Shown here: positions 9 to 61,108 of the stretch, piece after piece
Position numbering within the stretch: the stretch's first letter is position 1
Layout: each line of letters opens with the position of its first letter
Virus record (IMG/VR): IMGVR_UViG_2602041781_000001
Coordinates: 1,767 to 65,766 of that record
Length of the DNA: 64,000 nt
Source of the DNA: a virus
Taxonomy: Duplodnaviria; Caudoviricetes
Strand: one strand, 5' to 3'
Notes under the pieces: generated by a model
What the model was told of the DNA's origin: nothing
Database searches by the model: none
Seen by the model: only the letters and a program-made list of their open reading frames with translations
Position numbers and translations under genes: made by a program

Positions 9-371
9 GTGAGCATGATGGAGCGGCTCGTTGCGGCCGTCGGCGCCTGGCTGGTGCTGGCGGCCGCGGTGAATGGAGCCGAGCATGACTGGCTCTCGTC
101 GGCGGTATGCCTGTTCTGGGCCACTGCGTGCCTGGTCAGCGTCTTCGGGATGGCGTCAGACCGGAGGGCTCGACGAGCCGAACGAGAGAATCGAGCGCTG
201 CTGGCAGCGGTCGAGAGACAGCAATCAATCGAGGCCCGGTCCGAGGAATGGGTCCGCAACGAAGAGGGGATCTATGTCAGACTCAGGGATGACGCCGGAG
301 CAGGTCAAGGAAGCAGCGACGGACACCATCCGCAACGCGATGAATGCGGAGACCAAGACCAGGTTCGGTGA
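9..371 (+). CDS. putative membrane protein
   Basis: Two hydrophobic N-terminal segments then a charged helical stretch; overlaps the next ORF. Confidence 0.55.
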   Translation: MSMMERLVAAVGAWLVLAAAVNGAEHDWLSSAVCLFWATACLVSVFGMASDRRARRAERENRALLAAVERQQSIEARSEEWVRNEEGIYVRLRDDAGAGQGSSDGHHPQRDECGDQDQVR

Positions 372-34360: not shown

Positions 34361-34638
34361 TGCTGCTTCAGGGTCCGTTCCGTGGCGGCGATGATGTTCT
34401 GCCGCACCACTTCTGGGTTGAAATACACCAGCACGCCTTGCATCTCCAGACGCTCAGCGATCAGGCGCATCATGTTCTCGTTCGAGACCCCGGTCTCGGG
34501 GTCCCAGTCGTCGTCGAGGCGCTTGACAGGGTGGACCCTCTCCCCCATCTGGAGCTTGCCAGCCTCGTAGTCGTTGGTGATCGACCCGATGGTCGCGACG
34601 AGACGCTCGGCCAGCTCCATCGGCTCCAGGCGCCTCAT
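34357..34638 (-). CDS. hypothetical protein
   Basis: 93 aa, coupled on both sides. Confidence 0.7.
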   Translation of the reverse strand: MRRLEPMELAERLVATIGSITNDYEAGKLQMGERVHPVKRLDDDWDPETGVSNENMMRLIAERLEMQGVLVYFNPEVVRQNIIAATERTLKQQ

Positions 34639-35093
34639 GCGCTCACGACCTGGCTGTCGGCCAGAGCCTCGATGCTCTGGCGGTAGTACCGGACCTGCTT
34701 CGGCCCAAGCGGTCGGGTGCCGACGATCTTGCCCTCGCGCTCCCACCGGCGCAGCGTCGGTCGGGACACACCCAGCTCCATCGCGGCGGTGTTGGCGTCG
34801 ACGGTCTCGCGGAGCACCTGCCGCAGCTTGCCCGACTTGTCTGGGTCGATCTCGACCGGCTTGTCCTCCCACCGGGTGTTCTCCCGGCGTCGCGACAGTT
34901 CGCTGACGATCTGGTCGTGGTTGTCGAGGATCTGATCGAGGTAGACCCGGCGGTGGTTGCCGCTGGTCTGCGCGATCCGAAGACTCTTCATCCCCTCGAT
35001 GACAGCCCGACGCAGGGTATAGTCGTGAACCCCGATCACCTCGGCGGCCTGCTCCAGACTGATGAGCACACCTCGGTTCTTCGTTCGCGCCAT
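34635..35093 (-). CDS. DNA-binding protein with two MerR/excisionase-like HTH domains
   Basis: QAAEVIGVHDYTLRR...GNHRRV and AAMELGVSRPTLRRWEREGKI...QVRY; GAGGGAG RBS. Confidence 0.85.
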   Translation of the reverse strand: MARTKNRGVLISLEQAAEVIGVHDYTLRRAVIEGMKSLRIAQTSGNHRRVYLDQILDNHDQIVSELSRRRENTRWEDKPVEIDPDKSGKLRQVLRETVDANTAAMELGVSRPTLRRWEREGKIVGTRPLGPKQVRYYRQSIEALADSQVVSA

Positions 35094-35113
35094 GACTCCC
35101 TCTTCTCGCTTGT

Positions 35114-35860
35114 TCAAGTTGACCTCAACCCTAGCATATCCCGCTTGTTCGCTTCGGCGAGCAGGGGCCACGCCTTGAAGATCTTCGTGCGTTGCTCACG
35201 CACCTTACGGACGAACAGCAGCGCGTGTCGGTCGGCGTCTCGCGCGTGTCGGCCGCCCGGCACCCACATGTCCCAGAGCTTCAGTCGCTCATCGGTGATG
35301 GCGGTCTTGGCCTCGCTCGGCTGCTGGCGGGTGATCGGGTAGGGAACGTTCTTCCCCTCCCACAGCAGGTAGTCGAGGATCGCGGTGATGCGCACCGGCG
35401 AGAGCGCGTCCCGCTTCTGGTTCTGGGTGCGCAGGATGAAGTCTTCGACCACGACGGTGCAGTTCAGCGCCTTAGCGTGCCGTTCGACGAGCTTCTCGCA
35501 CAGGTGCGCACCGGCGGCCTCGCCCTCCTCCGAGGCGCTCAGGTCGTACTGGGACGCCGCGGAACCGAGCTGACCCGACGCCGCACCGCAGTCGATCTCG
35601 CCGTGCCACCAGTCGGTGATGACCTCGTGAGCCCGGACGGTTTTGTCGAACAGACGTTCGACGTCGAGGGTGAAGACCGACCAGCCGGTCGTCCCGCCGG
35701 GATCGAAGGCCACGACGCTCACGCCGCGCTCCATCCGGCGCGCAATCATCGCGTCACTCAGCGCGGGCAGGCGCTTCTCCAGCGGGTCCGGGTATCCCTC
35801 GTCGGCGTGGAAGATGGCCCGCCGGTCGAACCAGTGCTCGGGGGTGTCGTGCGGCTTCAT
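35114..35860 (-). CDS. RuvC-like Holliday junction resolvase
   Basis: VAFDPGGTTGW, VVVEDF, HARDA motifs. Confidence 0.8.
   Translation of the reverse strand: MKPHDTPEHWFDRRAIFHADEGYPDPLEKRLPALSDAMIARRMERGVSVVAFDPGGTTGWSVFTLDVERLFDKTVRAHEVITDWWHGEIDCGAASGQLGSAASQYDLSASEEGEAAGAHLCEKLVERHAKALNCTVVVEDFILRTQNQKRDALSPVRITAILDYLLWEGKNVPYPITRQQPSEAKTAITDERLKLWDMWVPGGRHARDADRHALLFVRKVREQRTKIFKAWPLLAEANKRDMLGLRST
35119..35140 (-). promoter_or_regulatory. extended -10 plus operator variant upstream of the HTH gene
   Basis: Minus strand ATATGCTAGGGTTGAGGTCAAC, near-identical to ATATGGTAGGGTTGACGTCAAC at about 42233-42254. Confidence 0.65.
35646..35661. promoter_or_regulatory. LexA (SOS) box, perfect, intragenic
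   Basis: TCGAAC AGAC GTTCGA. Confidence 0.55.
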
Positions 35861-36093
35861 CAGACACTCACCGCCGTGACCCGAGCCTGTTGCTCGTAGG
35901 CGGGTCCGTCGATGTCCCACTCGACACCGACGACCTTCCAGAGGTTGCCGTACCGCCGAAGATGCTCGCCGATCATCGGGACTCGGAAGCCGATCCCGAC
36001 GTAGTCGTATCGGGCCATAGACGATGAGAGTGGAACCCCTTCGTCGTCGACAAACTGGTAGTGGACAACAACTTTCGGCTGATTCTGGATCAC
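35860..36093 (-). CDS. hypothetical protein
   Basis: GTG 36093 after GGAGG, coupled to dnaE stop. Confidence 0.65.
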   Translation of the reverse strand: MIQNQPKVVVHYQFVDDEGVPLSSSMARYDYVGIGFRVPMIGEHLRRYGNLWKVVGVEWDIDGPAYEQQARVTAVSV

Positions 36094-39000
36094 AAATCCT
36101 CCAATTCGATGAGGCTGACTTCCTCGGCCTGCACAGCGGAGCCGTGGCTGCCGCGGGCGATGCCGAGCACGTGGATGGCGGTGTTGGTGCCGACGTCGGC
36201 CAGCTCCTCGGCCAGGTCGGGGTAGAGGAACCGGTGGACGTAGATGTGGACCTCGGTGCCGTCCCCGTCCTCGGCGATGACGGTCGCCTTCGTCGAGATC
36301 TCCGGCTTGTCGACCTCCTCGCGGAGCTGCTCGATCGTCCGGCCGGTGCGCTTGCGAAGGCCTTCGAGGTGGTCCTTGATCTTCACCTCGCGGATCAGAC
36401 CGATGAATACCACCCGATCCCCATCGCTGTCGGCGAGCAGGTCGGCCGACGTCGAGCCACCGAGGAGCGCGAGGTCTCCGTCGGCGATCGCGGCCTCGAT
36501 GCTGTCGACAGCACGCGCGGCCCGGTTGATCCCGAACGGGTCCCGCGACTCGCACATCTGTTCGATCTTCGCGATGGTCTTGGCGCCGAGGCCCGGCACC
36601 CCCTGAGCGGGCTCGTCCGGCTTCGTCTTCCGGCCGGTCTTCGCCGCGACGTAGCGCATGTCGGCCCAGGTCTTGCCGAGCGCCTTGAAGTTGATCGGCT
36701 TGTCGGCCGGAGGAGGGCCGACCTCGCGGTCGCGCCACTCCAGCATCTTCATCCCGACCTTCTCGGCGATGCCGGGGATCTGGGTGAACCCGGCTCGAAC
36801 GGCCTTCTCTGGTCCGCGGCGGGAAGGCTCCCACGTCAACTGCGACCAAACGAGGTGCGGACCCTGCACACTGATGCCATGTCGCGTTGCATCCTGCATG
36901 AGGCCCAGCGCCTTATTCTCCTTCGGGTCGGTCTTGGCGTAGCGCAGCGCCGCGGCGTAGAACTCGGTGGGGTGGTAGAGCTTCAGCCAGGCCAGCCAGT
37001 AGCCGACGACGGCGTAGCACGCGGCGTGGGCGATGTTGAACAGGTAGCTCGATGACTTCGCCATGTAGTCCCACAGCTCTCGCGCATCGGCCTCGGGCAT
37101 CCCGATCTCGCGCTTCATACCGTCGCGGAACTCCTCCCAGAACGCCTCGAACGCGCCACCCTGCTTCTTCTTCCCGATGATCCGGCGCAGCGCGCCGACC
37201 CGGTGGCCAGGCATCCCGGCGACGCGGCCCATCCCCATCACCTGCTCCTGGTAGACCAGGCTGCCGTTGGTGTAGGCGAGCACTTCGTTGACCTCGGGGT
37301 ACCCCCAGTCGCGCGGCTCCTCCCGGTCCATCTCGACGCCCTCGTAGTGCGCGGTCTGGCCGGAGATGAGCGCGCCGGGCCGGGACAGCGCGTTGATGTC
37401 GACGAGGTGCTGGAAGGTGAGCTTGGACCCCGCGAGGTTGTTGACGATCCCGCGGGTGGTGCGGCCGTCGAACTGGAAGATGCCGGTCAGGTCTCCCTTG
37501 TCGAAGATCTCCTCGAAGACCCGCTCGTCGTCGCGTGGGAGCGCGTACATCTCGGTCCAGCTCATCCCGATCCAGCGCAGGCAGTCCGAGATCAGGTCGA
37601 GGGTCTCCAGGCTCAGGATGTCGAGCTTCAGCATCCCGAGGTACTCGGCGTCGCGCTTGTCGTAAGCGATACCCCGGCGGACCACTCCCTCCTTCGTCTC
37701 GGTGTAGATCGCGCACGTCTCAGCGATCGGTCGGGTCGAAATCACCAGCCCCGCGGCGTGGATGCCGAGTCCGCGGTAGTCGCCCTCGATCTCGGCGGCC
37801 ATCTTCAGCTCGGGGTACTTCTTCACGATCTGCTTGGCCCGGTCGAACGTGGCGATCGCATCGACGACCGAGAAGTCCTCGCGCGGGTCGCCGTCGTCGC
37901 GGTCGACGATCAGGTCCTTCAGCTCGAAGACCTCGGAGAAGTCCGAGAGCTGGTGTGCGCGAGCGACATCCTTGATCGCCGACTTTCCGCGGTACCGGCT
38001 GTAGTTGGTGATCTTCGCGGTGCGGTCGGCGCCGTACTTCTCGGTCGCGTAGTCGAAGATCTCCTGCCGACGGCGGGACTCGAAGTCGATGTCGATGTCG
38101 GGATCGTCCGGCCGGGAAGGGTCGATGAAGCGCTCGAACTGCATGAGCGGGAACTCCATCGGGTCAATCTCGGTGATGCGCAGGAGGTAGCAGATCTCCG
38201 ACCCGGCGGCCGACCCGCGGCCGGGACCGACACCGATGGGGTCGGGGTGGTCCTTGGCAAACCGGACGAGGTCCGCGGTGACCAGGAAGTAGTCGCAGAA
38301 CCCCTTCTCTTCGAGCAGGCCGAACTCGTAATGGATCTGGTCGAGGTACTCCTGGGTGCGGGTGTCCCAACGCTCGGCGAACCGAGGGTCGGTCTCCGCG
38401 CGGAACTCGATCCCGTCGTTGATCCACTGCTTCAGCCGGTCGGCCGCGCTCATCGGCTTGCCGCGAGAGACGAACACGACGCGCTCCGACTTCGGCAGCT
38501 CGACGGTGCAGCGGTCGGCGATCTCGCGCGCTCCGTCGAGTGCGGCGTTTGCCTCGGCGTCGCTCAGGAGGCAGTCGGCGAGCTTCTGCCGGACGGCGTC
38601 GTCGGACTCGGGGTAGGTCAGCCGGACGTCGTACTCCCAGTCGGCGTCCTGGGTCTCGATCGTGCCGCCGCGGTGCGCCGCGTGCAGCATCCGCTGGATG
38701 TGGTTCTGGTCCGGGTAGGGGTAGTGGACGTCGGCGGTGGCCACGAGCGGGACTCCGTCGGCGGCCGACACGTCGGCGAAGAACTGGTTCAGCAGCACGG
38801 TGCGATCCAGCTCGGGGAACATCTGGACTTCGAGGTAGAACCGGTCGCCGTAGCACCTCACGTAGCGATGGATCAGCGCGCGGGTCTCGTCGACGCTCTC
38901 GTCGTCCCAGTCCTCGCGCCGGTCCCCGAGGCTCTTGCCGCCGAGCAGGGTGCAGGAGATCCACGAGTCGGCGCACCCGCTGGTCACGATGAGGCCCTTG

Positions 39001-39371
39001 GTCAGCTCGGGGTCGAGGAGCTGGCGGGTGTAGAGCCGCGGCACGACGAAGCTCTGCTCGTAGGACAGGCCGACGAGCCGGTTGAGGTTGCGGTACCCCT
39101 CGGCGTTCATCGCGAGCACGGTCTGGTGGAAGTGCCGCCGGACGCGCAGCTCGGGACCGGTCGCGACGTCGAACTCGACGCCGAAGATCGGCTTGATGCC
39201 GAACTCGTTGGCGGCCTGTTCGAGCTGCACGTGCGACGAGAGATTCCGGTGCTCGGTGAGCCCGACGGCATCCATACCCAGCTCCTTCACCCGCTGGACG
39301 TGCGCGCGGGGTTTCCGGTAGCCGTCGCCGTGGGAGAACGAGCTGTGTGTGTGCAGGGAGACCCACTTCAC
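36090..39371 (-). CDS. dnaE: DNA polymerase III alpha subunit (DnaE-like)
   Basis: PHP domain HTHSSFS.GDG, GRGSAAGS, FERF, PDIDIDF, HAAG, KLDIL, FN.AHA..Y. Confidence 0.97.
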   Translation of the reverse strand: MKWVSLHTHSSFSHGDGYRKPRAHVQRVKELGMDAVGLTEHRNLSSHVQLEQAANEFGIKPIFGVEFDVATGPELRVRRHFHQTVLAMNAEGYRNLNRLVGLSYEQSFVVPRLYTRQLLDPELTKGLIVTSGCADSWISCTLLGGKSLGDRREDWDDESVDETRALIHRYVRCYGDRFYLEVQMFPELDRTVLLNQFFADVSAADGVPLVATADVHYPYPDQNHIQRMLHAAHRGGTIETQDADWEYDVRLTYPESDDAVRQKLADCLLSDAEANAALDGAREIADRCTVELPKSERVVFVSRGKPMSAADRLKQWINDGIEFRAETDPRFAERWDTRTQEYLDQIHYEFGLLEEKGFCDYFLVTADLVRFAKDHPDPIGVGPGRGSAAGSEICYLLRITEIDPMEFPLMQFERFIDPSRPDDPDIDIDFESRRRQEIFDYATEKYGADRTAKITNYSRYRGKSAIKDVARAHQLSDFSEVFELKDLIVDRDDGDPREDFSVVDAIATFDRAKQIVKKYPELKMAAEIEGDYRGLGIHAAGLVISTRPIAETCAIYTETKEGVVRRGIAYDKRDAEYLGMLKLDILSLETLDLISDCLRWIGMSWTEMYALPRDDERVFEEIFDKGDLTGIFQFDGRTTRGIVNNLAGSKLTFQHLVDINALSRPGALISGQTAHYEGVEMDREEPRDWGYPEVNEVLAYTNGSLVYQEQVMGMGRVAGMPGHRVGALRRIIGKKKQGGAFEAFWEEFRDGMKREIGMPEADARELWDYMAKSSSYLFNIAHAACYAVVGYWLAWLKLYHPTEFYAAALRYAKTDPKENKALGLMQDATRHGISVQGPHLVWSQLTWEPSRRGPEKAVRAGFTQIPGIAEKVGMKMLEWRDREVGPPPADKPINFKALGKTWADMRYVAAKTGRKTKPDEPAQGVPGLGAKTIAKIEQMCESRDPFGINRAARAVDSIEAAIADGDLALLGGSTSADLLADSDGDRVVFIGLIREVKIKDHLEGLRKRTGRTIEQLREEVDKPEISTKATVIAEDGDGTEVHIYVHRFLYPDLAEELADVGTNTAIHVLGIARGSHGSAVQAEEVSLIELEDL

Positions 39372-39667
39372 AGAAGACCCTCCCTCTTCAGCAGGATCTC
39401 GGCGTTTTCCCGCGCTACTCGCGAAAGGTGGGATGACGGGCGAGTCCGAGCGCGTAGGAACAGCTCATCCCGCAGCTTGGCCTGGCGTTTCTCGCTCTCG
39501 GTCAATCGATTCCACTGGGGTAGCGCGCGAGCCCGAATCCACCAGTGGCGATCCGGGTGCCCCTCTTTCAATCGGCAGACCAGGGTCCCTCCCGTCACGG
39601 AGTGTTCTTTGACGACGGGGCATGGCAAGTGCGGCTTCAAGATCGGGACGCGGTTCACGATGGTCAT
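39368..39667 (-). CDS. hypothetical protein
   Basis: GGAGG RBS; C...C...GH...H pattern. Confidence 0.65.
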   Translation of the reverse strand: MTIVNRVPILKPHLPCPVVKEHSVTGGTLVCRLKEGHPDRHWWIRARALPQWNRLTESEKRQAKLRDELFLRARTRPSSHLSRVARENAEILLKREGLL

Positions 39668-39715
39668 GGGTTCCTCCGAAAGTTGCTCGAAAATCCGCTG
39701 GAATGGCTGAGACCC

Positions 39716-39744
39716 AATGTAAGACTTGACGTCAAGGATGTCAA
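39716..39744 (-). promoter_or_regulatory. SigA-type promoter with TTGACGTCAA operator in the spacer (dnaE operon)
   Basis: TTGACA-17 bp-TACATT; CTTGACGTCAAG at 39725-39736. Confidence 0.85.
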
Positions 39745-39965
39745 GCCCAACTCGCGCCTCTGGAGCCGACCAGCCACTTCTTGAAGGTGATCATGTCGTG
39801 CTCCTCGGCCCATTTCCGCATCTCTTCGGGGTAGTCCGAGCACCCGCTCTCCTCGCGCTCGATCTCCTGCCGGTAGCGCTCCTGGCGGTATTCGTCGACC
39901 TGGCGAGCATGGTGGATCGAGCACTGGACATGGTCGGGAGTGCAGCGGAGGTGCCGCTCGATCAC
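39741..39965 (-). CDS. hypothetical protein
   Basis: 74 aa, coupled; ITFKKWL motif. Confidence 0.65.
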   Translation of the reverse strand: MIERHLRCTPDHVQCSIHHARQVDEYRQERYRQEIEREESGCSDYPEEMRKWAEEHDMITFKKWLVGSRGASWA

Positions 39966-40468
39966 GCCGGGTCGGTGCAGTCCGGACAGCCGCCGCCATC
40001 ACAGGTCGCGCAGGGGTGATACTGCGCCTGGGTCCGGTGTGCGGGGAGGGTCGGGAAGGCGATTTGTGCTTCGGCCTCGGCGTATGCGTCCAGGAGCCGG
40101 TCCTGGGGAGTGTCGGTCATCAGCTCATCGATCGCGGCGTGCAGCCGGTCGAAGGGGATGGCCCCGCTGATGGTCGTCGTCGACTCCCCGCGGCGGACGA
40201 GCATGATCGCCGGTGTCGAGGAGATCATGTGCTTCTCCAGGAACATCCGCAGCTCGGCCTGGAACGGACCCTCGGGAGGAGGCAGTGGCGCACCGGCGAA
40301 CCCGAGGTGTCGCCGACCCTTCGGGTAGCTCTCGATCGCGCTGAGCATGTAGTCGAACAGGTGTTCGGTCCGATCGCCGATGAGCAGAACCCAGCGGGTC
40401 CGGCCGGTGCGGCTCTCGATCTCCTCGATGACCTTGGGGTCGCGCAGGTCGAGGAAGTGATAGGTCAT
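39962..40468 (-). CDS. hypothetical protein (possible degenerate thioredoxin-like fold plus CxxC-CxxC tail)
   Basis: ISSTPAIMLVRRG...ISGA; C-terminal CATCDGGGCPDC; GAAAGG RBS. Confidence 0.6.
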   Translation of the reverse strand: MTYHFLDLRDPKVIEEIESRTGRTRWVLLIGDRTEHLFDYMLSAIESYPKGRRHLGFAGAPLPPPEGPFQAELRMFLEKHMISSTPAIMLVRRGESTTTISGAIPFDRLHAAIDELMTDTPQDRLLDAYAEAEAQIAFPTLPAHRTQAQYHPCATCDGGGCPDCTDPA

Positions 40469-40489
40469 GTGCAGGGCCTTTCAACGGGA

Positions 40490-40528
40490 GAAGCGGGTGG
40501 ACCGACCCCTCATCGGCCCACCCGCTTC
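40490..40528 (-). terminator. hairpin after SSB-like gene
   Basis: GAAGCGGGTGG...CCACCCGCTTC. Confidence 0.6.
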
Positions 40529-40540
40529 GGTGGTGGTGTA

Positions 40541-41419
40541 TCAGAACGCCGGACGGCGCTTCCGGCCAGCGGTCGCGGCGGCGGCCTTCTTGGCGGGGGC
40601 CTTCTTCGGCTCCGGCTCGGGCTCGGGCTCCGGATCGTCCTCGGGCTCGTCGTCCGGGTCGTAGACGACCTCCTCCTCGTCACCGTCGGCATCGACGTCG
40701 ACCGGCTCCGGATCATCCTCCTCGGGGTCCTCGACGACCTCCTCCTCGACGCTGTCCGCGTCGTCGTCGACCACTCCCTCCTCGATGTCCGCGTCGTCGA
40801 CGTCGATGGCCTCGGTGTCGTCGATGTCCACGTCGTCATCGTCGACGGCGCCCGGGACCTCGTGGTCGGCCGGATGGACGTCGTTGATGCGCAGCGAGCG
40901 CACGTTCTCGACCTTCACCTTGCCGTCGGCGCCCTTGGACTTGCGCTTGTAGTTGTCGTCGCGCGCCGAGACCACGACCGGCAGGCCCTTGAACTTCTTC
41001 CCGGACACGACGAGGTTGCCGATCTTCAGGATCTTCTCGCCCTTGTCGTCCATGATGGCGTCGCCACCCCAGAACTTCGAGCGCAGCGAGGTGTCCCCGG
41101 CGATGGCGTCGAGCAGCCGGTTGATCCGGCCGACGAACAGGTCGGCGTTCTCGTCACCCATGCTCTCCGGGATGACGATGCGCTCGAAGATGGCGTAGCC
41201 GTTGTACTTCGAGACCGGATCGTCCTTCGGCGCGTCGAACTCGACGACCGCGACGAGCAGATCCTTGTCCTTGGCCTTGTTCGGCTTGATGGACAGGTTC
41301 CGCACTTTCGCGCGGTAGATGCCCCGCGGGGGCACCTCGCCGACGTACTGACTGAATCCGGCGGTGGCCTCGACCTTTGCGGCCTCCGCACCGATTTTCA
41401 GCTTGAGCTTTGTGGCCAT
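40541..41419 (-). CDS. SSB-like protein with very long acidic tail
   Basis: YVGEVPPRGIYRAKV OB-like N-terminus; about 75-aa D/E tract; ends in F; next to Sak4-like ATPase. Confidence 0.65.
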   Translation of the reverse strand: MATKLKLKIGAEAAKVEATAGFSQYVGEVPPRGIYRAKVRNLSIKPNKAKDKDLLVAVVEFDAPKDDPVSKYNGYAIFERIVIPESMGDENADLFVGRINRLLDAIAGDTSLRSKFWGGDAIMDDKGEKILKIGNLVVSGKKFKGLPVVVSARDDNYKRKSKGADGKVKVENVRSLRINDVHPADHEVPGAVDDDDVDIDDTEAIDVDDADIEEGVVDDDADSVEEEVVEDPEEDDPEPVDVDADGDEEEVVYDPDDEPEDDPEPEPEPEPKKAPAKKAAAATAGRKRRPAF

Positions 41420-41435
41420 TCTGGATTGTCTCCCT

Positions 41436-42215
41436 CTACTCCGAGTCGACGGCGTTCGACGACTCGATGATCTGTGTGATGTCGGCAAGACCCTTGCCGA
41501 CGGTCCGGCGGCCGAGAGCGTCGAAACGGTCCTTGGCCATCCACTTCTTGTTGGGCTGCCACTCGATGACACGCATCGGCTTGACCCCCTTCGTGGTCTT
41601 CACGCTGTCGAAGTGCATGTAGCCGACCACGTGCATCTGAGCAGCGATCCAGTTCGCGACCTTGCCGTCGCGGCCGTGGAAGTTGGGCATCCGCAGACCC
41701 GGGTCGTCCTCGGCGAACATGGCGTGCGCGGTCCAGCAGATGTTCACCGGCAGGTCGTTGACCAGGGTGACGTAGCGCATGAGGCGCATCTGCTCCTCGC
41801 CGTACTCCTGGAGTTCGACCTTGTCCGGATTGCGCTCGTCGTCGGCGTCGACGTCGGCCTGGACGATGTCCCGGCGGATGTCGAGCTGGAGCTGCGTGCC
41901 GGTGTCGATGCAGACCCAGTCGAACGGGAACTTCTCGTCCCGAGTCGCGTCTTCGAGCCAGTTGTAGGCCTCCAGGAAGTTCGACCACTTCGGGCAGCGC
42001 CAGACCTTCGAGTTGCCCGGGGCCTTCTTCGCCGAGATCGTGCCGTTCTCGACACCGAGGATCAGGGCTCTCTCGGCGCTGCCGAGGAAGCGGGTCTTGC
42101 CGACGCCGGGATCTCCGTACAGCAGCATCGTGATGTTCTCGGTGTACTCCTGGATGTCGACGATGTCGTCGGGGAGATCGAACCCCTTCAGATCGTCCGC
42201 AGTCGCCGTGGCCAT
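41436..42215 (-). CDS. AAA_24 / Sak4-like ATPase (recombination)
   Basis: LLYGDPGVGKT, WVCIDT, TAH, AKDR motifs. Confidence 0.85.
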   Translation of the reverse strand: MATATADDLKGFDLPDDIVDIQEYTENITMLLYGDPGVGKTRFLGSAERALILGVENGTISAKKAPGNSKVWRCPKWSNFLEAYNWLEDATRDEKFPFDWVCIDTGTQLQLDIRRDIVQADVDADDERNPDKVELQEYGEEQMRLMRYVTLVNDLPVNICWTAHAMFAEDDPGLRMPNFHGRDGKVANWIAAQMHVVGYMHFDSVKTTKGVKPMRVIEWQPNKKWMAKDRFDALGRRTVGKGLADITQIIESSNAVDSE

Positions 42216-42232
42216 GTTCTCCTCTTGTCTGT

Positions 42233-42254
42233 GTTGACGTCAACCCTACCATAT
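42233..42254 (-). promoter_or_regulatory. extended -10 plus TTGACGTCAA operator upstream of the ATPase
   Basis: Minus strand ATATGGTAGGGTTGACGTCAAC followed by GAGGAG RBS. Confidence 0.7.
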
Positions 42255-42265
42255 GGCGCCGGGGA

Positions 42266-43447
42266 TCAGAAGTCGCCGCGCCGTTCCTCGCGATGAGCCT
42301 CGTAGGGATCACGCACGTGGTAGGCGACGGATTTGAGCAGCTCGGTGTCGCCGTCCTGCTCGTCGGCCAGGCATAGGTCGTAGAAGTCGCAGTCCCATGT
42401 GCAATCGCGCGTCGGGTTCTTGTACAGCGGCAACAGGCCCTCGCGCATGGCGTTCATCGTCTGGATTTCGTCGGCGATGTGCTGGATCTGTTTCCGGCGC
42501 TCCTTCGAGGTCCGGTAGACCGGCTCTCGGTGGAACCGCGGGCTCGGCTGCTTCGTCGAGACGTCGCCGAGCACCGTCAGGCCGTGCTCCTCGGCCTCTT
42601 CGATCAGATCCGGCAGCTTCGACTTCTGAAGCTCCTTCTCCATCTCCGGTCCGATCGTCTCGACCCAGAGCTTCTCGCCCGACGCGGCGACCTCGCGCTT
42701 GGCGTGGAACTCCATCAGCGCGGCCACGAAGTGCTTCTTCGTCGGCTTGTTCGTCGCGCGACCCTGCTCGTCAACCGGTCGCTCGTCCGGCGGGGCTTTC
42801 ATCAGGAAGTTGTAGAGGATCCCGGACAGCCGTTCCCGGCCGGTGATCACTCCCTGGCGCCGGAGGACGTTGTCGGCGACGGCCCAGTACCCGCCAGCCT
42901 GGTCGTCGAGAGGGAGGTGGTTGGTCTTGATCGAGCGCGCCGTCTTGTGGTCCCAGAGCCAGATCTTGCCGGTGCCGAGGTTGCGCGCGACGATGTCGAA
43001 GGTGCCGTGGAACTTGGCCACCGGGGTCCGGTCGGCTGCGTTCCGCGGAATCCGGACGCCGAAGGGCTGCTCGGGGGAGAGCACCTCCCACTCCTCGTCC
43101 TGGCCGAACTCGACGAGGTAGTTCTCCAGCATCGCCTCGCCGACGGCCTCGGCATCGAGCACGACGTGCTCCTGGTCGGCGTAGAGCGAGCCCGACATGA
43201 TCTCGACCCGGACCAGCTCCATGACCCCCTGGCAGTACTCCTTCCAGGTCTCGATCGGGTCGCGACCACGGGTGGTGCCCGGGATGTACCAGTGCTCGAA
43301 GGCCAGGTGGATGCCGGTGCCGAACCACAGCGGGAGCTTCTTCCGGTTCGACTCCAGGCCCTCTCGCCAGGCCCACCACCAACGTTGCGGGCACCGCTTG
43401 AAGTCCTTGCGCTCGGACCCGCGGAGCAGCGGGAGGTCAGAGGTCAT
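42266..43447 (-). CDS. Cas4/RecB-like PD-(D/E)xK exonuclease
   Basis: S...FKRCP, FGTGIH, GTFD, WDHKT, Q...Y, C.WDCDFYDLC. Confidence 0.88.
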   Translation of the reverse strand: MTSDLPLLRGSERKDFKRCPQRWWWAWREGLESNRKKLPLWFGTGIHLAFEHWYIPGTTRGRDPIETWKEYCQGVMELVRVEIMSGSLYADQEHVVLDAEAVGEAMLENYLVEFGQDEEWEVLSPEQPFGVRIPRNAADRTPVAKFHGTFDIVARNLGTGKIWLWDHKTARSIKTNHLPLDDQAGGYWAVADNVLRRQGVITGRERLSGILYNFLMKAPPDERPVDEQGRATNKPTKKHFVAALMEFHAKREVAASGEKLWVETIGPEMEKELQKSKLPDLIEEAEEHGLTVLGDVSTKQPSPRFHREPVYRTSKERRKQIQHIADEIQTMNAMREGLLPLYKNPTRDCTWDCDFYDLCLADEQDGDTELLKSVAYHVRDPYEAHREERRGDF

Positions 43448-43781
43448 CGGCGATCTTCTTCAGCTCGCCGCGGGCCTGAGCGAGCGCGGCCCGGTACCGG
43501 ATCTTGGCCGACTCCAGGCGCAGGTAGGTCAGGTTGTTCTTCTTCGGATCACCGTCGTCGATCAGGACGAGATCCCCGAGGTCGAAGGCCGGGTAGTCGT
43601 CGCTGTTCAGGTCGAGTTTCGGCTGTCGGCTCCAGATACCGGGGTCGATCCGATAGGCCCGGTCCTGCCACCAGATGTGCGACGGCGTACCGGGGTGATG
43701 CTCATCGAGGTAGAGGAACTCGATCGAGGGCCACTGGATCACCGCATGGTGGGTGTAGAGCGCGGGGATGGGCTCAGTCAT
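43437..43781 (-). CDS. hypothetical protein
   Basis: 114 aa in the leftward operon. Confidence 0.65.
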   Translation of the reverse strand: MTEPIPALYTHHAVIQWPSIEFLYLDEHHPGTPSHIWWQDRAYRIDPGIWSRQPKLDLNSDDYPAFDLGDLVLIDDGDPKKNNLTYLRLESAKIRYRAALAQARGELKKIADDL

Positions 43782-44118
43782 TCGACACCAGCCAGGACTC
43801 GACCACGATCATCACGATGCGGTCCTTGTTGAGAGCGAACACGGTGCCCTTCTCGCCCGAGTTCCCGGCGTCCCCGTTGCCGACGGGGCCGATGTTGTAC
43901 CAGTCGTCGTCTCGGGTGGTTCCGTCCACCTTCAGCGGGAGCACGTAGAGAAGACCCGGGACCGAAGGGGATGGCTCCACCTCGTGCCCGATGACCTTGA
44001 AATGGTGTCCCCCGACACCGTTTTCGACAGTGATAGTTGAGAGGATCGGGGAGACTCGACCGATTGAGCCCTCGGCCCACTTCTTCACGGCAGGAGACAG
44101 AGCGTGCTTTTTGCCCAT
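43774..44118 (-). CDS. hypothetical protein
   Basis: ATG 44118 after GAAAGGA; TACCGT -10 upstream. Confidence 0.7.
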   Translation of the reverse strand: MGKKHALSPAVKKWAEGSIGRVSPILSTITVENGVGGHHFKVIGHEVEPSPSVPGLLYVLPLKVDGTTRDDDWYNIGPVGNGDAGNSGEKGTVFALNKDRIVMIVVESWLVSND

Positions 44119-44155
44119 GTTAGTTTTCCTTTCCACAGCAGCGTCGTCGACGGTA

Positions 44156-44332
44156 TCAGGTCATCCGGACAGGGGTGGGGTTCTCCCGACCGCAGTCCAG
44201 GCAGACCTTGACCCCGAGGTGAACGACCCCGGCAGGCTCACCGTTCACCGTGGCGGGGTTCGTGCGCAGGTACTTCACCTGGGTCCGAGGGTGCTTGCAG
44301 CGCCGGGATGCGCGACGCTCGGCCCGGTTCAC
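44156..44332 (-). CDS. small zinc-finger-like protein
   Basis: NRAERRA start, CKH...CLDCG; GTGA-coupled. Confidence 0.6.
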   Translation of the reverse strand: MNRAERRASRRCKHPRTQVKYLRTNPATVNGEPAGVVHLGVKVCLDCGRENPTPVRMT

Positions 44333-44700
44333 TCGGTCACCGACGGGAATGCGCCGCGGAACACGTGCCAGACGAGCCCGCCGTCCCGGATCGTCGCGAT
44401 GTAGGCCTCCATCGCCATGTAGACGTTCTCGTACCCCGAGGACTCTCGCCCCTCGGGAATCGGGTGCTCGACGCATCCGCGGATACGCTCCTCGTGCAGC
44501 GGGTGGCCGGTGCCGCGGATCTCGATCGGGACGTACTCGAAAGAGTCCGGGTGGGTCTCGACGATCATCCAAATGTCGACTTGCGGATACCCCGGATTCG
44601 GGTGCATCTGCGCGTCGAGGATGCCGATGACCGTGGCGCCGACGACCCGGATCTGTTGGCTGTCTTCGACGGGAATGGTGAACTTCCAGATGGTTCTCAT
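44329..44700 (-). CDS. conserved-type phage hypothetical protein
   Basis: MRTIWKF...GTGH...YIAT...GGLVWHVF. Confidence 0.75.
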   Translation of the reverse strand: MRTIWKFTIPVEDSQQIRVVGATVIGILDAQMHPNPGYPQVDIWMIVETHPDSFEYVPIEIRGTGHPLHEERIRGCVEHPIPEGRESSGYENVYMAMEAYIATIRDGGLVWHVFRGAFPSVTE

Positions 44701-45044
44701 TCGATCTCTCCTGCGTCGGGAAGCAGCTCGACCGCTGCTTGAATCAAATCCGCTAGTTCCGAATGGCCCTCATGGCGTAATCCGTCCAGGTCAGAGGCCC
44801 TCTCAAAGTCTCCGAACCGGTAGTGCGTGGACCGGTCACTGACGGTCCCGTCCTTCAATACCCGAGGCCCTTCGAGGAACCAATGGGTGTGGAACTTGCC
44901 GATCCCGCGGAGTCCGTGGAATCGGCGACTCCGGCTGATACTCAGGTGTTCCGGGACGAGTGAAATGGCCCGGGCTCCGACGATCTGCTCCCGGTGGTTT
45001 TCGACTCGGAATCGGCTCTTGAACTCGATCGTGTGGAGCTTCAT
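44697..45044 (-). CDS. hypothetical protein
   Basis: ATGA-coupled on both sides; GPRVLKDG motif. Confidence 0.65.
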   Translation of the reverse strand: MKLHTIEFKSRFRVENHREQIVGARAISLVPEHLSISRSRRFHGLRGIGKFHTHWFLEGPRVLKDGTVSDRSTHYRFGDFERASDLDGLRHEGHSELADLIQAAVELLPDAGEIE

Positions 45045-53349: not shown

Positions 53350-53919
53350 ATGAAACTGCACACCGACACGCTGACGATCTCGGATCTGCACGACGCCGTC
53401 GACTTCGTGAATGAGCACATCACCCGCGACGTGACACACCGGCCGATCGTCGGTGTGAGCCTGCACCGTGACTCACAGCACAACTCCAGGTCCCGGCGCC
53501 GCGCGTTCGATGTGATCCTGTCCGGTGATGCGTCCAGCCGGATCAATACCGGGTGGCGTGGCGGGCCGTCCGATGAGCCACACGCCGCGACGTGGGATCA
53601 ATGGGGAGCTTTCCTGTCTCGGTTGTTCGATGCCGACGACACGCTGACCATCCCGGGGATCTACGTCGACGCTGATCATTTCCGTTGGGCCACGTGCGAG
53701 CATTACAGCCCGGTGATCGGACTTGCCCCCGGCGCGCACTATCACCGGCGCCACGGCTGGACGCCGGTAGGCGATTCGGCCGCGGGCAGTTACGGCGTGT
53801 GGGTATGCGGCGACGGCGCGACAGTCGGCCGCGACAGTTGCGGCGCGGGTATGCGGCGGTTGTACACGCGCCGCTCGTGGGCCGATGTCCGCGAAGGATG
53901 GAAGGCCCTGAACTCGTGA
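53350..53919 (+). CDS. hypothetical protein
   Basis: GAAAGG RBS; SRSRRRAFDV.L.G and AATWDQWG.FL..LF motifs. Confidence 0.8.
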   Translation: MKLHTDTLTISDLHDAVDFVNEHITRDVTHRPIVGVSLHRDSQHNSRSRRRAFDVILSGDASSRINTGWRGGPSDEPHAATWDQWGAFLSRLFDADDTLTIPGIYVDADHFRWATCEHYSPVIGLAPGAHYHRRHGWTPVGDSAAGSYGVWVCGDGATVGRDSCGAGMRRLYTRRSWADVREGWKALNS

Positions 53920-54083
53920 GGGCGACCGAACGCCGCGCGCTGGCCCGCATCACCGCCGACGCACTATCCGGCGTCGTGCGTATCCCTGACGGCACACCGG
54001 CCTACTTCCAGGCCCTAGCAGAACTGCACACGGCACGCGCACACCGGCGCGCGCTGACACCCTCGAAAGGATCGAAGCGATGA
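53916..54083 (+). CDS. small hypothetical protein
   Basis: GTGA/ATGA coupled on both sides, 55 aa. Confidence 0.55.
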   Translation: MRATERRALARITADALSGVVRIPDGTPAYFQALAELHTARAHRRALTPSKGSKR

Positions 54084-54649
54084 GCAGCACACCGAAGTAC
54101 AGCGGGCCGGACTGGATCACCCGCGACGCCGATCTCATCGGCATGGACGTCGACGAGTACCGGACGGCCACGGCACTGGAAGCGGCGTGTGGACCGGGCC
54201 ACGCCGTGACCTACATCGATCGTGTCCAGTCGATTGTCCGCGGGTACCTGGACGCTCTGTTGTGGACGCAAGCCGATCACTCGCAAGGCGACGCCGACGA
54301 CCCGGAAGACACAACGTTGATGGACACCGGTTACACCGCCGATGACGTCGACGCGGACACGCGCGGCCGGATCACCGCCGAAGTGATGGCGATCATCACC
54401 GCGCACCCGCTGGCCGTGCGCATGTACGCCGCGCAACGCCGCCACAACGCCGCCGACGGCAACGTGTGGGAACACTTCGGCCATGACTTCCTGCTCACTC
54501 GCGACGGCCACGGCGCCGGTTTCTGGGATCGAGGTTTGGGGGATCTCGGCGACTACCTGACGACGATCGCGAAAGGCTACGGCGACCATGACGAGCTGTA
54601 CCCCGCGACGATCGACGGCCGCGACGTACTGACCGACGGCGGCGAGTAA
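54080..54649 (+). CDS. conserved-type phage hypothetical protein
   Basis: CGAAAGG RBS; GY..ALLW and GHDFLLTRDGHGAGFWDRG motifs. Confidence 0.85.
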   Translation: MSSTPKYSGPDWITRDADLIGMDVDEYRTATALEAACGPGHAVTYIDRVQSIVRGYLDALLWTQADHSQGDADDPEDTTLMDTGYTADDVDADTRGRITAEVMAIITAHPLAVRMYAAQRRHNAADGNVWEHFGHDFLLTRDGHGAGFWDRGLGDLGDYLTTIAKGYGDHDELYPATIDGRDVLTDGGE

Positions 54650-54716
54650 CCGATCTGACAACGCGCGTTGTCACATAGTGCCCCGACTCTGGCAACGGCG
54701 CCGGGGCACCGGTGTA

Positions 54717-54745
54717 TTGACGTCAACCCTCACATGCCGTAATGT
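54717..54745 (+). promoter_or_regulatory. promoter with TTGACGTCAA operator
   Basis: TTGACG-17 bp-TAATGT. Confidence 0.8.
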
Positions 54746-54783
54746 CTCACCTGTCAGCAGGAAACCCCACGAAAGGCCAGACC

Positions 54784-55314
54784 ATGAGCTTCCTTCCCGC
54801 ACCGATCGGACCCGTTGCCCCGACCGTCGTCGACGCCATCCGCGCGGAGATCGTCGCCGCCGATCGCGCGTACTCGAATAGCCTGGACAACCGGGTGCGC
54901 TGGAGCAACTTGGTTGCGGCCTACCGGACGGCGTACGCCGCGGCCGTCGACGCCGCTAACTCACTGGCACCCGGTGCCGACGATCTCGTCGACGAGCTGG
55001 AGCGTTGGGCCGACGAGATGGACGTTGTCCTAGCGTGGCCGCTGACCATGGGAATGGTCTACCGCGCGCTGGCCGCAAACGATTACGTGACCGACATGAC
55101 GCTACACACCACGATCACCGGCGCGCGATGGATTGCGATTGACGTCGACGAGAACGGCACGTTTGACGGATGGATCGACGCCGCGCCGTCGGACCCCGGC
55201 GTGGTCGTCGTGCGCGGTTTCGGTTCGCTCCAGGATCGACGGTTCATCGCCGAGACGCTGACCGATCTCGTCGACTATGTCGCCGGTCGTCTCGTCATGC
55301 GGTCAGCCATCTGA
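54784..55314 (+). CDS. hypothetical protein
   Basis: CGAAAGG RBS, ATG 54784. Confidence 0.75.
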   Translation: MSFLPAPIGPVAPTVVDAIRAEIVAADRAYSNSLDNRVRWSNLVAAYRTAYAAAVDAANSLAPGADDLVDELERWADEMDVVLAWPLTMGMVYRALAANDYVTDMTLHTTITGARWIAIDVDENGTFDGWIDAAPSDPGVVVVRGFGSLQDRRFIAETLTDLVDYVAGRLVMRSAI

Positions 55315-55369
55315 CAACGTTGGTAGTCGGTTGCCCCGGTCCAGGTCAGCGGGCCGGGGTATCGTCGGC

Positions 55370-55398
55370 TTGACGTCAAGTCTGACTTACCGTAATGT
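55370..55398 (+). promoter_or_regulatory. promoter with TTGACGTCAA operator
   Basis: TTGACG-17 bp-TAATGT. Confidence 0.8.
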
Positions 55399-55436
55399 CT
55401 CTCTTGTCAGACACCGACACCGACGAAAGGCCAGCC

Positions 55437-55550
55437 ATGTACCTGCTCCAGACGGCAACCGAGACCATCGCCTACGCCACCTATGAACTGGCCCGGGCTG
55501 CACAACTCGCGCACCCGGACCGCGCCGGATCGTCCATCACCGCGGCCTAA
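55437..55550 (+). CDS. 37-aa microprotein (not in the ORF track)
   Basis: Own promoter, CGAAAGG RBS, MYLLQTATETIAYATYELARAAQLAHPDRAGSSITAA, downstream hairpin. Confidence 0.7.
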   Translation: MYLLQTATETIAYATYELARAAQLAHPDRAGSSITAA

Positions 55551-55639
55551 CGGCCCGGCCGGGTGGCCGCTGCACCGGCGGCCACCCGCACAACTGACCA
55601 CAATCGTGGTCAGATCGATTACCCCGAAAGGATCTCGAC

Positions 55640-55909
55640 ATGGAAGACAACGCAACTCCGGCGGCCACCCGGCGGCCGATGGCACGGCACCGGCGGGCCA
55701 CACACGCCTACCGGGACACGCTCATCGGCCCGCGTCAGTTGCCGATCACCCGCGGCTACACCGGCCGGTACCGCTGGAGCGTTCGCACCGACGGCGACGC
55801 CGTACTCGTGTCGGCTCACGTCGCCGGTACTGACCGGCGGGTGCCGGTGGCCGATCTGCCCAACTATGTCGCGGCGGCCATCCTGGAGGCCATCGCAACC
55901 GACATCTGA
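55640..55909 (+). CDS. hypothetical protein
   Basis: CGAAAGGA RBS. Confidence 0.7.
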   Translation: MEDNATPAATRRPMARHRRATHAYRDTLIGPRQLPITRGYTGRYRWSVRTDGDAVLVSAHVAGTDRRVPVADLPNYVAAAILEAIATDI

Positions 55910-55954
55910 CGACACCCGTTGTCAGATCGACACTCCCCGAAAGGATTTCGCACC

Positions 55955-56644: not shown

Positions 56645-56955
56645 TGAAATTTTGAAACGTTTCAATTTTCTGCCATAGGGAAGGCCCTAGGGGATATGTA
56701 TATGAATGGAAAAATTTATTTGTGTGGATTTATTTATTTGTGCAGATGTGCATATGTGGGGATATATCTAGGGTATGGGGTAGGGGTCCCATATAGGGGT
56801 ATATATGCATATCACATTAATATATACATATCTATTAATATATTCATAATAAATGTTGAAAGAATAAATTATTGAAACGTTTCAATTGACGCCAATAGAT
56901 ACATGCATATGCATTTGATTGATGGATGGTTTCTCATTCATTCATTCATCAATCG
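56645..56955. other. non-coding AT-rich island bracketed by TTGAAACGTTTCAA palindromes
   Basis: Strongly AT-rich in a GC-rich genome; palindromes at 56652-56665 and 56872-56885. Confidence 0.9.
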
Positions 56956-58054: not shown

Positions 58055-58505
58055 TTGTCGTATCCGGACAACACCGCACACCCCCGGCTTTTGTCACTTT
58101 CCTACAAAAATCGGGTCCCGGAGCTGTCCGCGGATGTAGTATTTTTGTCGAAACCGCTCAGAAACACGCTCTGATTAGGGATTTTCACGAAATGTAGTAC
58201 CCCTCTGTGAATTACCATACTACATTTTTACTTACATCGATTTCGGCCTGACCAGCGGGTTTCACTACCCCGAGTACGTTGAGTCGATTCAGACTACGGG
58301 TCACGCCGTAGGAGGAGGGGTGGAAATGCACCCCCTCTGTACATGAACTCTGACATCAGTGGCCCACCGACAGGCCGACATGTAAGAATTGACCGGCAAA
58401 TCTAGCTTTGACACTAGGCTGACCCAAACTATTATTTCTACTCAGCATACTACAAGAGTGAAAAGAGCTGGTCAGGGATCTGCTAGAATGACTTTTACCC
58501 GTTTT

Positions 58506-58557: not shown

Positions 58558-58586
58558 TTGACAATCAATCCTGACGTGGGTATGCT
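58558..58586 (+). promoter_or_regulatory. SigA-type promoter
   Basis: TTGACA-17 bp-TATGCT. Confidence 0.8.
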
Positions 58587-60813: not shown

Positions 60814-61094
60814 GCTACAAGACCAAGGTCACGTTCTACTGCGACGCCGTCGACTGCCAGGTGAACCAGACCTTCGTGCTCGTCGGCGTCGGCTACGGCG
60901 GGGCCTGGCGGGCTCAGAAGGGCAACGGGGTCGTCGAGCCGGTCACGAAGATCCTGACCAAGGACATGGGCTGGACGATGGGTCTCGGCCGGTCGGGGGA
61001 CCAGATCTCTCGTCGGCCGGACTCGATCGCCACGTTCTGTCCGCGCCACGGCGGTCGGGAGTCGGTCTCGACATCCGGGTTGACACCAATCTGA
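60810..61094 (+). CDS. hypothetical protein (CD..DC...FCPRH)
   Basis: ATGA-coupled; Cys pattern similar to the 58641 ORF. Confidence 0.7.
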   Translation: MSYKTKVTFYCDAVDCQVNQTFVLVGVGYGGAWRAQKGNGVVEPVTKILTKDMGWTMGLGRSGDQISRRPDSIATFCPRHGGRESVSTSGLTPI

Positions 61095-61108
61095 ACGTCG
61101 CGTACCGT
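61080..61108 (+). promoter_or_regulatory. SigA-type promoter, probably leaderless
   Basis: TTGACA-17 bp-TACCGT, ATG 7 nt downstream. Confidence 0.7.

Follow-up and report, generated by a model that had tools for sequence, protein, structure and literature searches.

The stoperators of Cluster A actinophages are asymmetric sites of ~13 bp that are oriented with transcription, lie mostly in transcribed intergenic gaps and serve the immunity repressor of a temperate phage. The repressor of the temperate Streptomyces phage phiC31 binds conserved inverted repeats, which are longer than 10 bp. MerR promoters possess over-long spacers of 19–20 bp and longer dyads, whilst the MetJ met box (AGACGTCT) and the eukaryotic cyclic AMP response element (CRE; TGACGTCA) are short palindromes centred on ACGT, each bound by a single dimer. 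With regard to lytic actinophages, the timing of gene expression is, to our knowledge, largely unknown. The subject of this study is TTGACGTCAA, a 10-bp perfect palindrome that recurs along a stretch of phage DNA of 64,000 nt (hereafter the window; positions 1,767 to 65,766 of IMG/VR record IMGVR_UViG_2602041781_000001), part of a genome of 65.8 kb with 65 % GC. Its source is predicted to be a lytic Gordonia phage of Cluster CR (Zierdtviridae, Emilbogenvirinae), and the portions of PMC13313380 consulted likewise predict a lytic lifestyle for Cluster CR phages.

Amongst published systems, the closest are the repressor operator/stoperator networks of the Cluster A phages L5 and Bxb1, as presented in the searched passages of PMC5559632, the inverted repeats of phiC31 and, for the rightward units of hairpin and promoter, the promoter-early stem-loop (PeSL) cassettes of T4-type phages, as presented in the abstract of Arbiol et al. 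2010 (PMC2839356). In the searched passages of PMC5559632, PMC4524720 and PMC13313380, gene maps are all that is given for Cluster CR phages and the site is not described, the original GTE5/GRU1 paper lying outside this search; literature matches listed for the motif string itself all concern eukaryotic or vector work. The original prediction for this DNA, of a network of operator-like sites embedded in promoters, is upheld by the enrichment of the palindrome, its three registers within the RNA polymerase footprint, its deep conservation and its absence from hosts and unrelated phages, as detailed below.

Copies of the palindrome and their promoter registers

Eight exact copies of TTGACGTCAA are found in the window where 0.05 are expected, a number attained by none of 100 dinucleotide shuffles. 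All eight lie at the coordinates previously assigned to them, and the variant TTGACCTCAA is likewise present at 35119. Allowing up to one mismatch yields 13 sites, against an expectation of 1.35. A ninth exact copy is situated just beyond the window, at genome 262–271, so that the whole genome contains nine, compared with none for the reversed control, and a one-base variant, TTGACGCCAA, occurs at 56886 in an AT-rich zone upstream of the small terminase gene. Actinobacterial SigA promoters consist of a −35 resembling TTGACA, a spacer of 16–18 nt and a −10 of the form TANNNT, and half of the palindrome, TTGAC, is the core of this −35 consensus. Eight of the nine genome copies lie within SigA-type promoters; the remaining one, inside the tape-measure gene at 20330, fits no promoter rule and is of doubtful function.

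Inspection of the coding strand together with a promoter scan bears out the three architectures that had been proposed for these promoters, in which the palindrome forms the −35, sits in the spacer or abuts an extended −10. In register (a), seen at four rightward promoters, the TTGACG of the palindrome is itself the −35 and is followed, after 17–18 nt, by the −10 hexamer, which places the palindrome at approximately −35 to −26 relative to the start. In register (b), a separate −35 (TTGACA or TTGACC) is followed by 3–4 nt, the palindrome, a further 4 nt and the −10 (TACATT or TACAAT), with the palindrome at approximately −26 to −17, nine bases downstream of its location in register (a). Its members are the copies at 39726 and 50180, both on the − strand, which is the sense strand of the genes there, and that at genome 262 on the + strand. 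The copy at 50180–50189 is, in addition, nested within an 18-bp perfect palindrome, ccggTTGACGTCAAccgg. In register (c), the last T of an extended −10 is at the same time the first base of the palindrome, which consequently spans approximately −7 to +3. This is seen on the − strand at 42234, in a promoter (42234–42251) positioned 18 nt upstream of the ATG of an AAA_24 (RecA-like) ATPase gene, and, in degenerate form, at 35119; in both cases (TGGTAGGGT and TGCTAGGGT, respectively) TGn directly precedes the −10 hexamer.

A strict scan of both strands of the whole genome for TTGACN-16..18-TANNNT returned 10 matches, compared with ~1 expected by chance from a base-composition estimate. Seven of these bear the palindrome and have the sequence of a SigA/sigma-70-type promoter, and three are without it. 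In a generic consensus scan, two type (b) promoters rank first, with 10/12 each. Overall, the site is borne by 9 of the 12 promoters predicted in this genome. Given three good matches that lack it, and a merely degenerate version at the helix-turn-helix gene considered below, the palindrome is a differential rather than a generic mark.

Of the four rightward promoters, two are preceded by stable hairpins (−31.2 kcal/mol and z −2.5 before 54717; −27.3 kcal/mol and z −2.55 before 55370), and no stable hairpin was detected before 52922 (z +1.5) or 50318 (z −0.9). Rightward type (a) promoters also display a common leader, TGTCAGCAGGAAACC ... CGAAAGGCC, ahead of the ATG (positions 52951–52991, 54746–54786 and 55399–55436).

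Conservation among Cluster CR phages

Each of the 11 Gordonia CR genomes examined contains the exact palindrome, with 2–12 copies apiece and 66 in total, whilst the reversed control is found in none. These copies occupy orthologous promoters, namely those of the DnaE block, the AAA_24 gene, the divergent region, the rightward cassettes, the left arm and the AT-rich zone. Of the 40 exact copies in sequence from eight phages, 33 obey one of the promoter rules when read on the gene-sense strand, and in registers (a), (b) and (c) alike they overlap the footprint of RNA polymerase, the position at which an occluding operator is placed.

Conservation is concentrated in the palindrome itself. When the DnaE-block and AAA_24 promoters are compared across six subcluster representatives, the 10-mer has a majority-base fraction of 0.98, as opposed to 0.64 and 0.63 for the 25 + 25 flanking positions; these flanks contain the −35, the −10 and the ribosome-binding site, yet are less conserved than the 10-mer. 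The DnaE-block palindrome is retained in all six representatives (five exact, with ATGACGTCAA in Patio), with variable sequence in the adjoining 3-nt and 4-nt linkers, and at the AAA_24 promoter the combination of TGnTAnnnT and palindrome is conserved in 6/6. Moreover, spacer positions 8–10 (CAA) of type (a) promoters are kept in 18 of 19 sites. Sigma is not known to make base-specific contact at these positions, nor RNA polymerase to read them. On this comparison, the palindrome is under selection beyond the promoter hexamers.

The register in use differs between lineages. Many rightward promoters of Sukkupi, Foxboro and Kabluna are of type (b); in Gruunavirus, Skysandvirus and Pleakleyvirus the −10 lies 9 bp further off, and the TTGACG of the palindrome is the −35. 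This conversion of (b) to (a) by a 9-bp shift works because half of the palindrome is the −35 core. The variant TTGACGCCAA is dominant in Skysandvirus (seven copies in Patio and five in RedRaider) and arose independently in Commandaria (six), whilst Foxboro, a congener of Commandaria, has none. At the place matching the AT-rich zone site of the present genome, Foxboro, Kabluna and Fury have exact TTGACGTCAA.

Two further observations concern the promoters of these relatives. In Sukkupi (38000–66184), a second repeated palindrome, CGAGATCTCG, is present in seven copies in 28 kb, situated within TAGGCGAGATCTCGCCTA beside divergent and rightward promoters; it looks like a further operator for another regulator. 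In the left arms of Fury, Foxboro, Kabluna, Sukkupi, Marietta and Outis, the −10 of type (a) promoters (TAGGGT, TACGGT or TATGGT) ends 6–9 nt before the ATG, which suggests leaderless transcripts.

Occurrence beyond Gordonia CR phages

TTGACGTCAA is absent from all three Rhodococcus CR phages considered and from all five unrelated phages of Gordonia terrae 3612 (316 kb total), the latter speaking against a generic feature of Gordonia-phage promoters. In five Gordonia genomes (26.5 Mb, one of them G. terrae, retrieved via a published Gordonia 16S primer), the exact 10-mer, the only form sought, is at background, with 0, 2, 1, 1 and 0 copies against 1, 1, 2, 1 and 3 for the reversed control, and a host factor is accordingly disfavoured as far as an exact 10-mer search reaches. 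These background counts in hosts, along with the absence from unrelated phages, make a phage-encoded reader of the palindrome more likely than one supplied by the host. Amongst the matches listed for an IMG/VR scan with TTGACN4TTGACGTCAA, contigs with at least two units are compatible with CR phage records, and five other contigs carry one or two copies each. A search for an analogous motif in the Rhodococcus phage GuyFagieri found only a shared ribosome-binding leader to be enriched; this leader, ACGAACGGAGCAAGGCAATG, is enriched >100-fold.

Candidate DNA-binding proteins

The only recognisable sequence-specific DNA binders of this phage are a tandem winged-helix protein and two WhiB-like proteins. 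The former, encoded at 34638–35117 and found in all 68 CR records, matches the Pfam models HTH_17 (40.4 bits; cut-off 27) and MerR_1 (34.6 bits; cut-off 21.6), both through its C-terminal half, whilst its N-terminal half gives weak matches to AbiEi_4 and MerR-like models. The two halves share the pattern GV...TLRR...EG, with 10 of 19 residues identical. AlphaFold2, supplied with an 18-sequence alignment, predicts two beta-alpha-alpha-beta-beta-alpha modules (predicted local distance difference test, pLDDT, 85.7; predicted template-modelling score, pTM, 0.76), compared with a pLDDT of 54 when no alignment is given. With a cut-off of E 0.001, a Foldseek search with this model found nothing; single domains are most similar to Xis of mycobacteriophage Pukovnik (template-modelling score 0.77–0.80) and BldC, and over its whole length the chain bears a weak resemblance to TraN, a monomer with two winged helices. 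Neither Pfam nor the model reveals an effector domain. On the strength of the Pfam scores, the internal repeat, the two modules and the structural matches, the earlier description of a tandem, MerR-like double helix-turn-helix protein is right, and it belongs with the HTH_17/MerR/excisionase winged-helix proteins. Loci of its metagenomic relatives contained nothing informative.

A palindrome-like site precedes this gene only in Gruunavirus, Skysandvirus and Pleakleyvirus genomes, as TTGAGGTCAA in Gruunavirus and Skysandvirus alone and as TTGGAGTCAA in Fury. Elsewhere it decays to TTGTAGACAA, TTGTGAGTAA or TTGTGAGCAA, and it is unrecognisable in Sukkupi, Foxboro and Kabluna. The extended −10 (TGnTAnnnT) is, by contrast, kept in the representatives outside Gruunavirus (Patio, Sukkupi, Foxboro, Kabluna and Fury). 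In every Gordonia subcluster the last codons of the RuvC-like gene, CTA/ATA, spell this TGnTAnnnT for the next gene (35128–35136); such codons are expected to be uncommon at 65 % GC. A putative promoter of the helix-turn-helix gene is, in this way, embedded in RuvC-like coding sequence. Of the feedback loop that had been envisaged for this gene, the variant site and the conserved extended −10 are indeed in place, but the palindromic part is degenerate outside a few genera. This promoter thus has the weakest operator of all, or none, which would fit a regulator that escapes its own shut-off, although many other readings fit equally.

Two small proteins without recognisable family were also considered, and may be regarded as weak alternative candidates for the reader. 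One is a 58-aa basic, zinc-ribbon-like protein whose distribution matches that of the palindrome (61 Gordonia records and no Rhodococcus record by tblastn), the other a 54-aa basic helical protein that is 70–81 % identical across Gordonia CR phages (59 and none, respectively). Neither has a family in Pfam or PHROGs, their ESM Atlas scores are below 0.9, and homologue searches returned three clusters for each. Naming the reader by presence/absence profiling was abandoned, since ~10 proteins share the pattern of occurrence in Gordonia CR phages only, which is too many to separate: in the right arm the 58-aa, 54-aa, gp81-like, gp84-like and thioredoxin-like proteins, and in the left arm HicA-like, gp13-, gp20- and gp21-like proteins and lysin B. 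Fury, with its 12 sites, lacks the second WhiB. Co-variation was likewise dropped. In Skysandvirus, TTGACGCCAA first seemed to go with three protein differences, namely a substitution of S for G in the winged-helix protein, a divergent version of the 58-aa protein and an altered 54-aa protein; however, Commandaria has the same variant along with Foxboro-type versions of all three. This points to a position of the dyad (4/7) at which substitution is tolerated, not to a specificity that has changed by co-evolution, and no reader can be named from co-variation. Lastly, no ribbon-helix-helix (MetJ/Arc type) or bZIP-like protein was found among 55 proteins searched with Pfam and 29 with PHROGs, although weak members may escape such searches.

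Genomic setting

Structural and lysis genes run rightward up to ~30 kb, replication and recombination genes leftward from 31082 to 49839, and small genes rightward again from 50396 to 56484. The AT-rich zone at ~56.7–56.96 kb follows, and thereafter the small terminase gene and ~20 small genes continue into the structural block. The coordinates of the promoters, sites and proteins discussed are collected in Table 1.

The AT-rich zone (56690–56960), a possible origin or packaging region, contains several palindromes, including TTGAAACGTTTCAA and ATGCATATGCAT, and has GGGGTAGGGG-type runs on its flanks. A similar AT-rich patch with GGGGTAGGGG-type runs lies at the right end of the genome of GuyFagieri, a Rhodococcus phage. 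The leftward operon opens with a gene (48847–49839) for a 331-aa protein that is found in all CR phages, the GuyFagieri version sharing 33 % identity. Its relatives in other CR phages harbour a low-complexity repeat region of the PPTSAAHSAAH type and a conserved C-terminal end, ...GGGFRSVA..I.K(I/V)(G/S).

Table 1. Promoters, palindromic sites and protein-coding features of the phage genome (window positions unless marked as genome)
Feature	Position	Strand	Details
Exact copies of TTGACGTCAA	20330, 39726, 42234, 50180, 50318, 52922, 54717, 55370		Window positions
Copy in tape-measure gene	20330..20339		Codons Leu-Thr-Ser-Thr; no promoter rule fitted
Leftward promoter of replication-gene operon, type (b)	50170..50199	-	TTGACA, 18-nt spacer, TACATT; palindrome 50180-50189
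Internal leftward promoter, type (b)	39716..39744	-	TTGACA, tcc, palindrome, gtct, TACATT; ahead of 99-aa gene and DnaE
Promoter outside window, type (b)	genome 262-271 (copy)	+	TTGACC, 17, TACAAT; leads towards lysin B and structural genes
First rightward promoter, type (a)	50318..50347	+	TTGACG, 18-nt spacer, TACTGT
Rightward promoter, type (a)	52922..52950	+	TTGACG, 17 nt, TAACGT; then conserved leader TGTCAGCAGGAAACC...GAAAGG and ATG
Rightward promoter, type (a)	54717..54745	+	TTGACG, 17 nt, TAATGT; GC-rich hairpin upstream
Rightward promoter, type (a)	55370..55398	+	TTGACG, 17 nt, TAATGT; GC-rich hairpin upstream
Promoter, type (c)	42234..42251	-	Extended -10 TGGTAGGGT (42251-42243) overlaps palindrome (42234-42243) by one base
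Promoter, type (c), degenerate	35119..35136	-	TTGAGGTCAA after extended -10 TGCTAGGGT (35136-35128); in last RuvC-like codons, ahead of tandem helix-turn-helix gene
AT-rich zone site	56872..56895	+	14-bp palindrome TTGAAACGTTTCAA (56872-56885) directly adjoins TTGACGCCAA (56886-56895)
SigA-type match without palindrome	58408..58435	+	TTGACA, 16 nt, TATTAT; gap between small terminase gene and next gene
SigA-type match without palindrome	58558..58586	+	TTGACA, 17 nt, TATGCT; ahead of gene after small terminase gene
SigA-type match without palindrome	61080..61108	+	TTGACA, 17 nt, TACCGT
Leftward block products	31082-49839	-	Primase/polymerase, WhiB, helix-turn-helix protein, RuvC-like, DnaE, thioredoxin-like, AAA_24 ATPase, Cas4-like, helicase, second WhiB
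Tandem winged-helix (Xis/MerR HTH_17-type) protein	34638..35117	-	160 aa from TTG, or 152 aa from ATG at 35093
58-aa basic protein	44159..44332	-	C-x-H...C-x2-C (zinc-ribbon-like); distribution matches palindrome
54-aa basic helical protein	53916..54077	+	70-81% identical across Gordonia CR phages

Interpretation and alternatives

From its distribution and placement, we infer that a protein binds the palindrome, that this protein is encoded by the phage and that it represses. The explanation we lean towards, by a narrow balance of judgement, is that TTGACGTCAA may be an operator specific to Gordonia CR phages, at which a phage-encoded protein would occlude RNA polymerase at most SigA-type promoters. 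Such a protein, twofold-symmetric or pseudo-symmetric, would sit on the palindrome and block the polymerase in all three registers, and as it accumulated it would damp the palindrome-bearing promoters jointly. Since the registers place the site at different distances within the polymerase footprint, an activator of fixed geometry is unlikely and occlusion is the simplest account. Several points weigh against this explanation. The winged-helix, 58-aa and 54-aa proteins do not co-vary with the site variant, TTGACGCCAA being present both in Skysandvirus and in Commandaria, the latter with Foxboro-type proteins. The half-site centres of a 10-bp palindrome are only 5 bp apart, which is short for a classical helix-turn-helix dimer. 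In addition, the palindrome is found at promoters leading into late-looking genes, and a simple early shut-off is not evident. For the same reason the early-to-middle switch governed by one protein, as first put forward, cannot be endorsed, given that copies also lie at genome 262, ahead of lysin B and structural genes, and before the small terminase gene. Joint damping of most SigA promoters of the phage is as far as the data would seem to go.

If the reader is encoded by the phage, the original prediction has a nominee in the tandem winged-helix protein, which would bind with one domain per half-site and exert early shut-off, with feedback through the weaker TTGAGGTCAA. Its fold is a bona fide DNA-binding one, with HTH_17 and MerR_1 scores above their cut-offs; the motif common to both halves, the two modelled modules and the resemblance to Xis, BldC and TraN point the same way; a pseudo-dimer would suit a short palindrome; and the gene has its own conserved extended −10 in the 3′ end of the RuvC-like gene, accompanied in the window by an imperfect palindrome. 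Comparison between phages nevertheless lends this assignment no support. The C-terminal helix-turn-helix segment, LGVSRPTLRRWE, is invariant in 18 of 18 aligned members, including those of GuyFagieri and MacGully, which have no palindromes, and phages that have the palindrome in common differ in the N-terminal recognition helix (HDYTLRR, PAWVLRR, PEHILRR). The sole lineage-specific change, by which S replaces G after the recognition helix in Skysandvirus, does not recur in Commandaria, which has the site variant too, and the site before the gene is degenerate in Sukkupi, Foxboro and Kabluna. Domains of the Xis/BldC type, moreover, usually line up on direct repeats. We therefore regard this protein as an unlikely, although not far-fetched, reader. 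It is distinctly unlikely, in our estimation, that the reader is a dimer of no known DNA-binding family that mimics the TTGAC specificity of sigma region 4. A protein of this kind would compete with host sigma at the −35 and elsewhere block the spacer or start site; candidates are the cluster-restricted orphans, such as the 58-aa zinc-ribbon-like and 54-aa basic helical proteins, and, if true, it would constitute a global switch for all SigA promoters of a lytic actinophage.

A transcription factor of the Gordonia host, through which the phages would be coupled to host physiology, might be suspected because the motif follows the host genus: all 11 Gordonia CR phages have it, and none of the three Rhodococcus CR phages does. 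This seems very doubtful in view of the host genomes, where the exact 10-mer occurs four times in 26.5 Mb versus eight for the reversed control (host sites could be degenerate), and of the unrelated G. terrae 3612 phages, 0 of 5 of which carry it. Those same phages, which use the same host polymerase without the palindrome, also speak against the view that no separate factor exists and that RNA polymerase itself reads back-to-back −35-like TTGAC elements, as a landing pad or a strength-tuning decoy. TTGAC is certainly the −35 core, and type (a) is type (b) moved by 9 bp, with the same element usable as a −35; however, register (c) puts the palindrome at ~−7 to +3, where it plays no part as a −35, conservation is equally strict in the inverted and the direct half, and three good promoter matches in this genome lack the palindrome, so that we hold out little hope for this account either. 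A role outside transcription (replication, recombination, nicking or packaging), or a functionless legacy of promoter duplication, is hinted at by the copies that precede the small terminase gene in the AT-rich zone, by the one inside the tape-measure gene and by the near-duplication of some rightward promoters in Patio. Either is most improbable when promoter registers account for 33 of the 40 exact copies and when the site is conserved across subclusters with diverged flanks and in three unrelated contexts.

Whatever reads it, a single 10-base site kept in every Gordonia-infecting relative examined offers a testable handle on the transcription programme of these phages. The palindrome is usable as bait for its regulator, and might serve as a small, transferable operator in genetic work on Gordonia and Mycobacterium. 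There is also an evolutionary point, in that a −35 hexamer can be co-opted as half an operator, and a 9-bp shift therefore turns a spacer operator into a −35 operator.

Comparison with known systems

The arrangement resembles the stoperators of Cluster A phages in that a short, near-invariant site is repeated over an actinophage genome, with some copies overlapping a SigA-type early promoter, and in that a single protein would govern many transcription units. Unlike in Cluster A, the site is a 10-bp perfect palindrome located inside promoters, the phages are predicted to be lytic and no repressor is known; the asymmetry, the orientation with transcription, the location in transcribed gaps and the immunity repressor of a temperate phage are all missing here. 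As in phiC31, a palindromic site is repeated at many intergenic places of the early region of an actinophage, although the phiC31 repressor has been identified and its operator is not known to be fused to a −35 hexamer. PeSL cassettes, as far as the consulted abstract portrays them, pair a strong host-type promoter with a terminator hairpin between blocks of small genes, and in the window two of the four rightward promoters follow a stable hairpin. A PeSL consists of promoter and stem–loop, whereas the present promoters have an embedded 10-bp palindrome, which is also found at the hairpin-free promoters of the replication operon. The type (b) palindrome lies between −35 and −10 like a MerR operator, and the earlier candidate protein has a MerR-like helix-turn-helix; however, each of the three type (b) promoters of this genome has a spacer of 17 or 18 nt rather than 19–20 bp, the dyad is 10 bp and the candidate is without an effector domain. 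The core of the palindrome, TGACGTCA, is identical to, or one base off, the MetJ and CRE sites, a resemblance of sequence only, and its size suits a ribbon-helix-helix or basic-helix reader. What sets the present case apart from these systems is a perfect palindrome, with no known reader, that doubles as the −35 and is deployed in three registers across a lytic cluster.

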